Positions 48,394 through 49,802 of a stretch of 64,000 bases of DNA are shown in pieces (position 1 is the stretch's first letter; the number at the start of each line of letters is the position of its first letter). Origin of the DNA: Escherichia phage PMBT57. The position numbers were made by a program, and so were the translations under genes. Location of the stretch: sequence record MG770228.1. One strand, written 5' to 3'. The notes beneath the pieces are model-generated. The model was not told the DNA's origin, did no database searches, and was given only the letters and a program-made list of their open reading frames with translations.

Positions 48394-48556
48394 ATCCCAG
48401 GCTATGGCTATTAAACAGTTAGCCTTCAACTGCCTTAGTGCTATGAAGGCATTTAATGAAGCAAAAACTTTCCCTGACCAGAATAAAGCTCGTATTCAAC
48501 TTTATCAGTCTAAGAAAGATTTTGAAGAATATCTGGAAAGTATTACGGTGAAATAA
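48380..48556 (+). CDS. early small protein, 58 aa (below the track threshold)
   Basis: Hand-translated as MGISESQAMAIKQLAFNCLSAMKAFNEAKTFPDQNKARIQLYQSKKDFEEYLESITVK. GGAGG RBS; TAATG coupling to the next gene. Confidence 0.6.
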   Translation: MGISESQAMAIKQLAFNCLSAMKAFNEAKTFPDQNKARIQLYQSKKDFEEYLESITVK

Positions 48557-48876
48557 TGAAAACAATATTAATTGTTCATGATGCTGATTTTAATGATGTT
48601 GATAAAATGATGCGTAATATTGATTATGTAGCTCAGACAACTCCAGCATTTAAAGAAGAATTTACTCTATATTGTGATGCTAATTCACCATTAGTTCCCA
48701 TTCTGAAAAAAGCTGGTTTACCCTTCTCTACAGATAATTTCCCTGAAGAACCTGATTATGTAATTTCATTTATTTATGACTTACATGACGGTTCAGAACC
48801 GAGTGAATTGGCTATGAGTCAATGGAAATCCAGAAGACCCGTATATGCATTTCAGGTAGTTAAATCAAGGGGTTAA
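48556..48876 (+). CDS. early protein, possibly a degenerate DUF2493/SLOG-like fold
   Basis: 106 aa. The N-terminus MKTILIVHDADFNDVDKMMRNIDYV resembles the beta1-loop-helix start of DUF2493-type proteins; weak. Confidence 0.6.
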   Translation: MKTILIVHDADFNDVDKMMRNIDYVAQTTPAFKEEFTLYCDANSPLVPILKKAGLPFSTDNFPEEPDYVISFIYDLHDGSEPSELAMSQWKSRRPVYAFQVVKSRG

Positions 48877-48878
48877 CT

Positions 48879-49247
48879 ATGTTAGGTGATAACACTAATG
48901 CTCTGTTTGGGGTGTCAGCCAGACCCATTATCATTGTTAATAAACATCATGGTAAGAAAGGTGAATATATTGGGCGTGGTTCTCCTCTGGGTAATCCATT
49001 CGTTATTGGTAAAGATGGAACCAGAGAAGAAGTAATTGCCAAATATAAAGTATGGCTGCAAGAACAGATTGATAAAGGTAATCCAGATGTACTGGATGAA
49101 TTAAATCGTCTTGGTAATAAAGCCATTGATGAAAAAGGATTAGCTTTACAGTGCTTCTGTTATCCAAAACCTTGTCATGGCGAGGTTATTAAAGAGAAGT
49201 TAGTGAAAGCTATGTATAACTATTTTGTGGAAAATCCTAATGGATAA
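48879..49247 (+). CDS. DUF4326-like protein
   Basis: 122 aa. IGRGSPLGNPFVIGKDGTREEVIAKYKVWL matches the conserved N-terminal signature of DUF4326 as I recall it. Confidence 0.7.
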   Translation: MLGDNTNALFGVSARPIIIVNKHHGKKGEYIGRGSPLGNPFVIGKDGTREEVIAKYKVWLQEQIDKGNPDVLDELNRLGNKAIDEKGLALQCFCYPKPCHGEVIKEKLVKAMYNYFVENPNG

Positions 49248-49425
49248 ACAATGCAAATGTGGTAAAGGCTATGTATCCCAATGGGATGGTAAATGTGGTC
49301 ATTGTAGAACCAAGAAAGAACAACGTGACCATGAATATGCACTTCAGGAAATGATTGTACCTGTTGAGAATTTAGGTATGGCTCCACTTGAGGCTTACAA
49401 ATACATAAGGAGATTATGCAAATGA
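49240..49425 (+). CDS. small Cys-rich (zinc-ribbon-like) protein
   Basis: MDKQCKCGKGYVSQWDGKCGHCRTKKE carries CxC...CxxC. Start at the ATG 49240 or the GTG 49225. Confidence 0.6.
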   Translation: MDKQCKCGKGYVSQWDGKCGHCRTKKEQRDHEYALQEMIVPVENLGMAPLEAYKYIRRLCK

Positions 49426-49802
49426 AAGAAGTATTCGTATTTGGTTCTAACCTTGCTGGTGTACATGGTGCAGGTGCTGCAAAGACAGCATATAAGAAAC
49501 ATGGAGCCAGATGGGGTAAAGGGCATGGTCATTACGGTGACAGCTATGCCATTCCCACTAAAGATACCAATATCAAAACGATGACTATTGAAGACATTCG
49601 TACATTTGTAAACGCCTTCATTGTCTATGCTGCTAATCATCCAGAACTTAACTTTAAAGTTACTCGTGTAGGTTGTGGATTAGCTGGTATTGATGATTCT
49701 GTTATGGCCTCTATGTTTGAAAATGCCACTGATAACTGTTCCTTTGACTTAGCATGGAAAAGTTACTTAGGGGATGATTTCAACTACTGGGGAACGTTCT
49801 AA
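49422..49802 (+). CDS. conserved phage protein with a SLOG/Rossmann-like GSNxxGxHGxGAA motif
   Basis: 126 aa from the ATG at 49422 (AAGGAG 9 nt upstream; ATGA overlap). VFVFGSNLAGVHGAGAA...SYAIPT...VGCGLAG resembles YpsA/MoCo-carrier-type SLOG nucleotide-binding loops. Confidence 0.7.
   Translation: MKEVFVFGSNLAGVHGAGAAKTAYKKHGARWGKGHGHYGDSYAIPTKDTNIKTMTIEDIRTFVNAFIVYAANHPELNFKVTRVGCGLAGIDDSVMASMFENATDNCSFDLAWKSYLGDDFNYWGTF

Follow-up and report, generated by a model that had tools for sequence, protein, structure and literature searches.

A compact predicted macrodomain and its neighbours in an N4-like phage as a possible module for the erasure of ADP-ribose

The gene gp14 of an N4-like phage almost certainly encodes a macrodomain, as judged from its structural model, which is compact (126-128 aa) and belongs to the TARG1/DarG/Poa1p class, and there is good reason to predict that it binds or hydrolyses an ADP-ribose (ADPr) derivative. 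We lean slightly towards the view that gp14 and its three upstream neighbours form a split, co-expressed counter-defence module that erases or processes ADPr; counter-defence as such is a probable role of the module, while DarT-type ADP-ribosylation of DNA is put forward tentatively as its main target.

The analysed window, i.e. the whole stretch of 64 kb of DNA, stems from an Enquatrovirus and shows 99% identity to vB_Eco_AL25 and 98% identity to N4. The four open reading frames at 48556-49802 correspond to N4 gp11-gp14. All of them had been proposed in a preliminary description of this DNA, and all were found at the positions given there, on the plus strand and with the quoted peptides. The features relevant to the following argument are:

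47796..47821, plus strand: terminator-like hairpin and T-run after gp7, bounding the uninterrupted gene string gp8-gp14 on its upstream side
48058..48393, plus strand: gp9, degenerate DUF4326 paralogue of gp12, outside the cluster coordinates
48556..48876, plus strand: gp11, 106 aa, contains MKTILIVHDADFNDVD; SLOG/YpsA-like Rossmannoid, degenerate
48879..49247, plus strand: gp12, 122 aa, contains GRGSPLGNPFVIG; DUF4326
49240..49425, plus strand: gp13, 61 aa, putative zinc-ribbon mini-protein (C-x-C...C-x2-C) with a variable helical tail
49416..49802, plus strand: gp14, 128 aa as called, contains FGSNLAGVHGAGAA...GCGLAG; in all likelihood a compact macrodomain, predicted ADP-ribosyl hydrolase
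49820..49839, plus strand: P3-like virion-RNAP (vRNAP) promoter hairpin, the downstream boundary of gp11-gp14

By sequence comparison gp11-gp14 are real conserved genes, with 21 homolog clusters for gp11, 831 for gp12 and at least 7998 for gp14. Within the cluster each gene adjoins or overlaps the next, an arrangement suggestive of translational coupling. The true start of gp14 is probably the ATG at 49422, because a Shine-Dalgarno motif (AAGGAG, 49407-49412) lies 9 nt upstream of it. A PADLOC search with five proteins returned zero matches.

The assignment of gp14 rests on fold comparison and on profile alignments. Its AF2 model (pLDDT 94.7) comprises six strands and four helices, and the best PDB matches found with Foldseek are BT1257, TARG1, DarTG/DarG, Poa1p and viral macrodomains, with probabilities of 0.98-1.0 and TM scores of 0.55-0.65 for macrodomain entries (about 0.55-0.62 for DarG2 and TARG1, with which it has the fold class in common). 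No SLOG, LOG, DprA or YpsA structure is among the top 50 PDB matches listed, nearly all of which are macrodomains. Gp14 had been described as SLOG-like, and this is the one of the four original fold calls that proved wrong, whereas those for gp11, gp12 and gp13 hold; the supposed SLOG phosphate-binding loops are, according to the profile and hhalign alignments, the pair of loops with which a macrodomain binds ADP-ribose. When the gp14 profile was compared with PDB sequences, TARG1 came first, though below the threshold, and this lead was then tested by the fold search. In the profile alignment TRIGCGLAG of gp14 is matched with PRIGCGLDRL of TARG1, and AIPTKD with LITKKR in the region of TARG1 K84. 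Neither gp14 nor gp12, used as a single-sequence query, gave a significant match to a PDB chain, and the Pfam Macro families did not match gp14 or 37 homologs even at E<=0.1-1; gp14 does match NCBIfam NF049995, 'A1S_2505 family phage non-structural protein' (1.4e-45).

For the class as a whole the earlier remark that these proteins lack a known function is outdated: anti-DarT activity has been demonstrated experimentally for AdfM macrodomains and AdfN NADARs. PhiKZ gp104 (AdfM) is a proven anti-DarT2 DNA de-ADP-ribosylase macrodomain (Cell Rep 2026, PMC13309987), and T4 AdfM (Tk.4) is genetically required against DarTG2 (bioRxiv 10.1101/2025.11.20.689424). Gp14 resembles them in that it is predicted to be a single-domain macrodomain of the DarG/TARG1 class which the phage encodes as an orphan. 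An hhalign comparison with PhiKZ AdfM (E=2.2e-4, 98 columns, probability 45%) aligns gp14 N12 with AdfM N23 and K49 with K78, the latter within a PTKD motif that is identical in both proteins; N23 and K78 are the catalytic residues of AdfM (PMC13309987), their counterparts being N22 and K80 in DarG and, for the Lys, K84 in TARG1. Loop 1 of gp14 (FGSN-LAGVHGAGAA) aligns with AdfM ITVN-VVGVMGAGLA, loop 2 (TRVGCGLAG) with TARG1 PRIGCGLDR, and the patterns G-x-x-G-A-G-x-A in loop 1 and R-I-G-C-G-L in loop 2 are common to gp14, DarG2 and TARG1. With T4 AdfM the hhalign similarity is negligible (E=0.09); this protein retrieves the same PDB set as gp14, with BT1257, Poa1p, DarG and TARG1 as best relatives. 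Among 156 diverse members of the gp14 family, conservation reaches 98% for N12, 99% for H17 and 88% for K49, and 93-99% for the positions of the Gly-rich loops.

It should be noted that gp14 also departs from the characterized enzymes. It is about 30-35 residues shorter than AdfM, without the N-terminal strand and an internal beta-hairpin, and it is accompanied by DUF4326, zinc-ribbon and SLOG-like genes. The invariant His17 stands where DarG, AdfM and TARG1 have Met, and thus a different chemistry or a different substrate is possible. The catalytic Asp125 in the G-C-G-L-D loop of TARG1 is absent, its equivalent in gp14 being Ala90 (Ala in 93% of the members). The C-terminal DarT-binding domain of DarG2 is missing from gp14, and in the phage no toxin gene is adjacent to gp14. 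K49 is not universal, as the equivalent residue has been lost in tandem Bacteroidales copies of the domain.

Domains of the gp14 type constitute a 'mini-macro' family of more than 4000 representative clusters, in which the loop-1 His17 is invariant and for which no Pfam model exists. At least 458 records of cultured phages contain a gp14 homolog, and unrelated phages (BPP-1, a crAss-like phage and Casjensviridae) have the domain as well. In 51 of 80 viral loci the gp14 homolog immediately precedes the RNAPII genes, a neighbourhood retained across Schitoviridae of many hosts, and in 27 of the 80 a DUF4326 gene lies upstream of the homolog; the N4-like loci within these counts are phylogenetically non-independent. 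Outside the N4-like phages the neighbours are genes for DNA replication and repair. The other three genes, gp11, gp12 and gp13, have a patchy distribution even in close relatives; some of these (L006, L012-L014) have no gp12-type gene, so that gp11-gp14 are not an obligate unit.

Bacterial relatives of gp14 were seen next to ADP-ribosyltransferase (ART) genes in two of 27 bacterial loci, an association noticed after the fact. In one locus (L107) a DarT-domain gene (PF14487, 1.6e-34) and a gene for a protein combining a gp14-type domain with DUF1810 are part of one tight gene string; the DarT gene was found with a looser motif pattern, the strict DarT pattern having found none, and the gp14-type copy of this locus has no Lys at the position aligned with K49. 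In the other (L086) an ART-PolyVal gene directly follows a gp14-type+DprA protein. An apparent third case, the 'ADP-ribosyltransferase' beside the gp14 homolog of RcWhiteOak, was discarded; the label belongs to the homolog itself, which is mislabelled. Within the window itself, the surroundings of the cluster showed no ART gene.

A survey of domain fusions connects the remaining proteins with gp14. The gp14-type domain is fused to YAcAr/SLOG (P0291, P0361, L068), to NADAR (P0308), to DprA (P0329/L086) and to DUF4326 (P0331). DUF4326 is in turn fused to NADAR (L052) and to SLOG-like domains, which are recognized by a weak DprA match plus motifs in L025 and by motifs only in L037. A zinc ribbon of the gp13 type precedes DUF4326 in a single protein (L044:1978-2430; local HMM 4e-22, Pfam DUF4326 1.5e-17); no mention of this fusion was found in PMC9503650 or PMC7824862. 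These independent fusions tie all four domain types of gp11-gp14, together with NADAR, into one module. The earlier proposal of one unit that handles NAD-derived molecules is thereby supported through the fusions and the ART neighbours, while the mechanistic basis suggested for it, which included SLOG loops in gp14, proved partly wrong.

A viral Macro-SLOG-NADAR-DUF4326 network of ADPr proteins with a predicted counter-defence function has been described by Iyer, Burroughs, Anantharaman and Aravind (Viruses 2022, PMC9503650; Viruses 2021, PMC7824862). The domain set and the logic of fusions and neighbourhoods are the same, early expression would be a further common feature, and our survey around gp14-type domains reproduces the network. 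The N4 arrangement differs in consisting of four separate small genes, in its degenerate SLOG protein and in the extra zinc ribbon; moreover, these authors favour soluble ADPr, whereas the ART neighbours favour macromolecular ADPr. A further parallel is provided by AdfN, phage NADAR enzymes directed against DarT1 (Nat Commun 2025, PMC11825919). They follow the same orphan-antitoxin strategy, in which ADPr is removed from phage DNA, and NADAR is one of the fusion partners of both gp14-type domains and DUF4326, but AdfN has another fold than gp14 and is specific for guanine. A NADAR domain was not found in or beside the N4 cluster.

The call of gp12 as DUF4326-like was confirmed by Pfam (PF14216, E=6.6e-23, 81.6 bits versus a gathering cutoff of 25), and the protein is assigned to phrog_464. 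It has kept the motifs GRGSPLGNP and C-x-C-x4-CHG, which are conserved among aligned gp12-type sequences. DUF4326 proteins are rhodanese-phosphatase-like, and a function in ADPr processing has been predicted for them (PMC9503650); gp12 is accordingly predicted to be an enzyme acting on ribose-linked phosphates or on breakdown products of ADP-ribose. A homolog search with gp12 returned just G7C/N4-like proteins of about 90% identity and gave no information on architectures. Its paralogue gp9 matches phrog_464 (1.8e-20) and, below the cutoff, Pfam DUF4326 (E=2.8e-4). In the alignment of all gp9-type sequences GRGSPLGNP is changed to hYPMPLxNPF and the C-x-C-x4-CHG segment is deleted; gp9, having lost the Cys/His motif, is likely non-catalytic.

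The small protein gp13 (phrog_13804) has the pattern C5-x-C7-x11-C19-x2-C22, and the four Cys, noted before as a CxC...CxxC signature, as well as the spacer GKGY-x-S-x-WD are invariant in 12 family members. It is a putative zinc ribbon and a probable partner of DUF4326.

For gp11 the picture is mixed. The label 'DUF2493/SLOG-like' is justified for the fold, which is a SLOG/YpsA-like Rossmannoid with similarity at the fold level only, and fails for the Gly-rich loops and the profile match. Neither GG-x-G-x-D after strand 2 nor GG-x-GT after strand 4 is present, their sites being occupied by LYCDANSPL and YDLHDGSEPS; every other SLOG sequence motif is likewise missing, Pfam gives no match at E<=1, and an hhalign comparison with the YAcAr-containing fusion P0361 (E 0.33) found no match. 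The gp11 family is confined to close relatives. Anti-Avs ORF83, a LOG/SLOG-like protein with DUF4326-fused homologs in amoeba viruses (EVADES preprint 10.1101/2025.06.06.658234), is comparable in being a viral protein of the SLOG superfamily that is associated with DUF4326, as gp11 is adjacent to gp12. However, the AMP-binding site predicted for ORF83 is retained, in contrast to the Gly-rich loops of gp11, which have been lost, and no sequence relationship between the two was detected. We regard gp11 as a candidate non-catalytic binding or adaptor subunit. The label 'antirepressor' that it carries in PMBT57, VEc25 and KP8 was unsupported in all searches.

The gene cluster had been described as the last four genes of the early operon transcribed by the vRNAP, which is imprecise, as a vRNAP promoter hairpin follows gp14 and the early genes gp15-gp16 lie beyond it. 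The P3-like hairpin has a 7-bp stem (AAGCTGC/GCAGCTT) and a TCC loop (GGA on the template strand) at 49820-49836, with the +1 G at 49839 and the ATG of gp15 38 nt further downstream. A hairpin scan of the 64 kb revealed just two elements in which a stem of 7 bp carries a TCC loop and is followed by TTGG. The published promoter determinants, namely a 3-nt loop with G at its 5' and A at its 3' position, a C:G closing pair, A or G at -11, G at -10, G at -8 and C at +1 (PMC4496689), are all present in the hairpin, and gp15-gp16 are vRNAP-transcribed early genes (PMC13434306). We therefore read this element from its sequence as the vRNAP promoter that drives the RNAPII genes gp15-gp16. The notion of a mere terminator was rejected, as the hairpin does not appear among the calls of the terminator scan and fits every promoter determinant, but a dual promoter/terminator role is conceivable. 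The hairpin scan of the window found no vRNAP promoter of gp11-gp14 themselves. The nearest vRNAP-type hairpin upstream is P2-like (45831-45847), and terminator-like hairpins at 46353 and 47796 intervene; early expression of gp11-gp14 would therefore require read-through. The hairpin at 47796 has an 11-bp stem with six GC pairs and the tail TATTTTTATC (consensus terminator scan), and it is annotated as a terminator in vB_Eco_AL25.

The substrate, catalysis, division of labour and defence target that we infer from these folds, motifs, alignments, fusions and neighbourhoods would be as follows. The catalytic core would be gp14, a shortened member of the TARG1/DarG2/AdfM class of macrodomains that would bind ADP-ribose with the loops FGSN-x2-G-x-HG-x-GAA and T-R-x-GCGLAG and would hydrolyse the ADP-ribosyl linkage with the help of Asn12, Lys49 and the family-specific His17. 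By analogy with PhiKZ and T4 AdfM, its likeliest substrate would be ssDNA carrying thymidine-linked ADP-ribose of the DarT type, the removal of which would shield a phage that relies on extruded ssDNA hairpins for early transcription and for replication. With its intact Cys/His motif, gp12 might process a phosphate-bearing ribose product or adduct of the same pathway, assisted by gp13 as its partner, and the degenerate SLOG protein gp11 might serve as a non-catalytic subunit that binds ADPr, nucleotides or ssDNA. We found no literature linking N4 or Bas69 to DarTG. The evidence as a whole points to ADPr chemistry, and DarT-type modified DNA is at least as likely a target as soluble signals.

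The main alternative, in itself rather unlikely, is that the module acts on soluble ADPr derivatives that are immune signals or toxins, such as the Thoeris products 1''-2' or 1''-3' gcADPR, His-ADPR, ADPr-1''-phosphate or ADPr>P. In this case gp14 would act in the manner of Poa1p, as a phosphatase or hydrolase, with gp12 taking off terminal ribose phosphates and gp11 binding or sequestering the signal. The prediction made earlier for the domain network prefers soluble ADPr over DNA (PMC9503650), but by sequence and profile gp14 is nearest to TARG1 and AdfM and not to Poa1p, and it has kept the catalytic Lys of the glycohydrolase class. In addition, the only writers found nearby, DarT and ART-PolyVal, are ARTs that modify macromolecules and not TIR or signal synthases, the fusion partners NADAR and DprA act on DNA, and gp11 has none of the Gly-rich ligand loops expected in a SLOG sensor or sponge.

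The combination of a gp14-type domain with DUF4326, a zinc ribbon and a degenerate SLOG protein might also stand for a multi-step pathway that removes and dismantles an uncharacterised ADPr-derived adduct or signal, an idea that we consider unlikely. The gp14-type family would then be more than a further group of DarG-like thymidine-ADPr hydrolases. Candidate targets would be ssDNA or RNA adducts of a phosphoribosyl or ADPr nature beyond the reach of canonical DarG or NADAR enzymes, or a new TIR/SIR2 product.

Gp14 could, with a small chance, reverse the ADP-ribosylation of RNA or proteins instead of DNA. Examples would be CmdT-type modification of mRNA, ADPr-capped nucleic-acid ends, or host or phage transcription and replication machinery modified by ARTs. 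Macrodomains of the TARG1 class free both acidic residues and phosphorylated nucleic-acid ends of ADPr, and TARG1 is the top sequence-profile match of gp14 in the PDB. An ART-PolyVal gene stands beside one gp14-type gene, and such effectors of phages and conjugative elements are thought to modify macromolecules; the frequent position directly upstream of the RNAPII genes would also fit. However, Asp125 of TARG1, which is needed for ester cleavage, is Ala in gp14, the window has no ART gene near the cluster, and P3 lies between gp14 and gp15, so that the two genes are not co-transcribed from this promoter.

A housekeeping role in nucleotide or NAD metabolism, or in handling NAD-capped RNA during the switch from early to middle transcription, is improbable. 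It would agree with the retention of gp14 homologs beside the RNAPII genes across Schitoviridae and with the conservation of the genes although E. coli K-12, the laboratory host of N4, has no DarTG or Thoeris, but gp14 is not one of the 14 strict core genes of N4-like phages (PMC4193335), the patchiness of gp11-gp13 is typical of accessory anti-defence genes, and the gp14-type domain is also found in unrelated phages and in bacterial ART contexts. The original idea that SLOG-type domains intercept cyclic (oligo)nucleotide messengers of CBASS, Pycsar or type III CRISPR is very improbable, given that gp14 is not a SLOG protein, that gp11 has no nucleotide-binding loops or profile match, that Pfam, PADLOC, PHROG and fold searches uncovered no likeness to Acb1, Acb2, Apyc1, Tad, ring nucleases or sponges, and that the fusion partners all belong to ADPr chemistry.

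If the favoured reading of an ADPr-erasing module is true, gp11-gp14 join a kind of phage counter-defence that has already been recognised. N4 is a classical model phage in which the left-end genes gp3-gp14 have been without assigned functions, and four of them gain an assignment that is testable; DUF4326 and its zinc-ribbon partner would at the same time gain a tractable experimental system in E. coli. Beyond N4, a very large family of compact macrodomains invisible to Pfam has been identified, and its members are candidates for AdfM-type orphan antitoxins. More phages than hitherto assumed would then be expected to resist DarTG-type and other ADPr-based defences, which bears on the choice of phages for therapy, and, should the multi-step pathway exist, it would represent a broad-spectrum shield against NAD-based immunity in Schitoviridae and many other phages.

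The window belongs to an Enquatrovirus; over bases 48000-50000 it shares 99.1% identity with Escherichia phages vB_Eco_AL25 and vB_Eco_SPSP, and 98.0% with N4. Four small genes in this region are named after their N4 counterparts:

48556-48876, plus strand, gp11
48879-49247, plus strand, gp12
49240-49425, plus strand, gp13
49416-49802, plus strand, gp14

The peptides quoted in the preliminary description were all found in these reading frames. The gp10/gp11 junction reads TAATG, a gap of 2 nt separates gp11 from gp12, and the gp12/gp13 and gp13/gp14 overlaps comprise 8 nt and 4-10 nt, respectively. 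The Shine-Dalgarno motif AAGGAG at 49407-49412 favours the second ATG of gp14 (49422), in agreement with the N4 and AL25 annotations. These are real genes with numerous homologs, which fall into 21 clusters (gp11), 831 (gp12) and at least 7998 (gp14). The label "antirepressor" on the gp11 orthologs of PMBT57, VEc25 and KP8 was unsupported by the searches run here.

The gp14 protein was modelled with confidence (AlphaFold2, 37-sequence alignment; pLDDT 94.7, pTM 0.89), and its Foldseek matches in the PDB are almost exclusively macrodomains. Leading matches include BT1257 (2fg1, E=3.5e-4), TARG1/C6orf130, Thermosipho DarTG, the DarG macrodomains of T. aquaticus and M. tuberculosis, and Poa1p, followed by viral and MacroD-type macrodomains; none of the 50 PDB matches listed is a SLOG, LOG or DprA structure. 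Thus, gp14 is almost certainly a macrodomain, and the preliminary description, right about the reading frames and peptides, was wrong in assigning it to the SLOG domains. Among 156 diverse family members, N12 (98%), H17 (99%), K49 (88%) and the GCG loop (88-97%) are conserved. No Pfam Macro model detected gp14 or the homologs scanned, and the only NCBIfam name for the family is "A1S_2505 family phage non-structural protein". One homolog, gp55 of Rhodobacter phage RcWhiteOak (L113:2501-2836), is annotated as "ADP-ribosyltransferase" and is probably a mislabelled macro-type hydrolase. Proteins with two tandem gp14-type domains occur in Bacteroidales MAGs (L108:3003-3845, L109:3033-3845); the PTK lysine is replaced in both copies (AIPVV..., AIPTMR...), while the asparagine and the GCG loop are retained.

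The best PDB sequence match of the gp14 family profile, albeit non-significant, was TARG1, with TRIGCGLAG of gp14 aligned to PRIGCGLDRL and AIPTKD to LITKKR, where the catalytic Lys84 lies. The alignment with PhiKZ gp104, an anti-DarT2 macrodomain (AdfM), covers 98 columns (hhalign, E=2.2e-4) and places N12 on N23 and K49 on K78, the latter inside an identical PTKD motif. AdfM strips the ADP-ribose (ADPr) attached by DarT2 from DNA and protects the phage, N23 and K78 being active-site residues (PMC13309987). Genetic evidence shows that the T4 AdfM, Tk.4, is needed against DarTG2 (bioRxiv 10.1101/2025.11.20.689424). It matches the same PDB set as gp14 (BT1257, 1.3e-9; Poa1p; DarG; TARG1), but the direct profile match between the two is negligible (E=0.09), and therefore gp14 shares the structural class of AdfM without close kinship to the T4 protein. 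In contrast to DarG, AdfM and TARG1, gp14 is about 35 residues shorter and has the invariant His17 instead of a methionine; the equivalent of TARG1 Asp125 is an alanine.

The DUF4326-like signature noted earlier was borne out, as gp12 matches PF14216 (E=6.6e-23, 81.6 bits versus a cutoff of 25) and is a genuine DUF4326 protein. Among 36 aligned family members from N4-like contigs, two subtypes can be told apart: the gp12 type keeps the GRGSPLGNP and C-x-C-x4-CHG motifs, whereas the gp9 type, including gp9 of the window (48058-48393), has wholly lost the C-x-C-x4-CHG segment. Thus, gp9 is a degenerate DUF4326 paralogue of gp12. All close relatives keep a gp9-type copy, including loci without a gp12-type gene (L006, L012-L014). 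The previously noticed CxC...CxxC mini-protein is gp13, which has four invariant cysteines (C-x-C-GKGY-x-S-x-WD-x2-C-x2-C-RT, then a variable tail) and matched no Pfam family.

The gp14-type domain is present in 4235 representative clusters and in 458 cultured phage genomes, mostly Schitoviridae of many hosts, and also Bordetella BPP-1, one crAss-like phage and Casjensviridae. Fusions were sought in long gp14-type proteins (P-numbers) and in neighbouring ORFs of the surveyed loci (L-numbers):

P0291, P0361, L068: gp14-type domain with YAcAr/SLOG
P0308: gp14-type domain with NADAR
P0329/L086: gp14-type domain with DprA-like SLOG
P0331: DUF4326 with gp14-type domain, in N4 gene order
L052 (2062-2931): NADAR with DUF4326
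L025 (1739-2692), L037: DUF4326 with a SLOG-like part (SGFADGAD...GGTG motifs; Pfam DprA model 0.0058 in L025, no match in L037)
L044 (1978-2430): gp13-type zinc ribbon with DUF4326

These fusions are independent and indicate that the four genes belong together. Around the gp14-type family, they reproduce the Macro-SLOG-NADAR-DUF4326 network that Iyer et al. had inferred (PMC9503650; PMC7824862), with the zinc ribbon as an addition. The L044, L052 and L025 fusions are located in early regions of N4-like IMG/VR contigs, each 1-2 kb upstream of a gp14 homolog. The alternative fused versions in other Schitoviridae suggest rapid shuffling of one functional cassette.

In 80 IMG/VR loci bearing a gp14 homolog, gp15 (RNAPII small subunit) follows directly in 51, and a same-strand DUF4326 gene precedes the homolog in 27. 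Each of gp11 and gp13 occurs in 12 of the 80, restricted to the closest enteric relatives apart from the L044 fusion, and some of these relatives are devoid of a gp12-type gene. Therefore, gp14 is the broadly conserved core, with gp11, gp12 and gp13 as accessory genes. Outside the N4-like phages, the viral neighbours are replication/repair genes (RNR, gp32, RecA, PolA, 5'-3' exonuclease).

An ADP-ribosyltransferase (ART) beside the gp14-type domain was noticed, after the fact, in two of the 27 usable bacterial loci:

L107:1218-4703, Prevotella sp. MAG JAGCRH010000062.1: tight same-strand string encoding a DarT-domain protein (480 aa), an unknown protein (260 aa) and a gp14-type+DUF1810 protein (420 aa)
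L086:910-3265, Candidatus Saccharibacteria MAG PBTC01000041.1: 481-aa gp14-type+DprA/SLOG fusion, with an ART-PolyVal gene directly after

The former (DarT domain PF14487, E=1.6e-34) could be an unconventional DarT system with the compact macrodomain as eraser, and the latter (ART-PolyVal, E=1.6e-11) is a possible writer-eraser pair. The two proven erasers of DarT1 and DarT2 DNA modification are NADAR (PMC11825919) and DarG-type macrodomains (PMC13309987). Because of these erasers, the ART and replication/repair neighbours and the AdfM alignment, ADP-ribosylated DNA is the single most likely target, and it is a serious possibility, if still short of probable, that the gp14 module acts on DarT-type DNA-ADPr. 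The estimate is held at this level because the aligned catalytic lysine is missing from the L107 copy, an ART is present in only two of 27 loci, an invariant His17 replaces the methionine of DarG, AdfM and TARG1, and the published network prediction prefers soluble ADPr derivatives (PMC9503650). Soluble ADPr signals or toxins are a rather unlikely target in our view, and RNA or protein ADPr is more doubtful still. The ADP-ribose/NAD theme of the earlier interpretation is thus upheld by the ADPr-linked fusions and ART neighbours, but its proposed interception of cyclic oligonucleotides deserves very little credence, since Pfam, PADLOC, PHROG and fold searches gave nothing in its support.

A hairpin scan of the 64 kb (perfect stems, 3-nt loops) revealed only two elements that have TCC as the loop of a 7-bp stem and TTGG thereafter, the second and third below:

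45364-45376, P1-like hairpin (5-bp version) before gp1, predicted +1 at 45381
45831-45847, P2-like hairpin before gp2, predicted +1 at 45850
49820-49836, P3-like hairpin between the gp14 stop and gp15 start codons, predicted +1 at 49839

All three have every published determinant of N4 virion RNA polymerase (vRNAP) promoters, i.e. the template-strand loop G-(A/G)-A, the C:G closing pair, -8G and +1C (PMC4496689), and are therefore predicted to be P1-, P2- and P3-like promoters; no such hairpin of their own was found for gp3-gp14. The third precedes the known early genes gp15-gp16 (PMC13434306), and therefore gp11-gp14 close the gene series ahead of P3 and not, as had been stated, the early operon. 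Terminator-like hairpins at 46353 and 47796 precede gp11-gp14, and early expression would need read-through. Within 47796-47866, the gp8 start codon lies about 45 nt after the terminator-like hairpin behind gp7; no vRNAP-type hairpin is found between them, and thus a promoter of gp8-gp14, if any, would be of the RNAPII (middle) type. Compared with N4, the PMBT57 assembly is circularly permuted, and N4 coordinate 1 (left end, injected first) maps to about 45275, so that the physical genome terminus falls within the window; the right end includes a strong terminator-like hairpin (44648-44665). In N4 coordinates, gp11-gp14 are about 3.3-4.5 kb from the end entering the cell first, which would fit early deployment.

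Neither experiments on N4 gp11-gp14 nor any study tying N4 or Bas69 to DarTG turned up in a literature search. Erasure of DarT2 marks by orphan macrodomains of phages has precedent in AdfM (2025-2026), and an association of SLOG, Macro, NADAR and DUF4326 had been predicted in 2021-2022. From their sequences, gp11-gp14 would represent a split-gene version of this counter-defence theme, the variant features being a His-invariant compact macrodomain, a degenerate SLOG, a zinc-ribbon partner of DUF4326 and the degenerate DUF4326 paralogue gp9.
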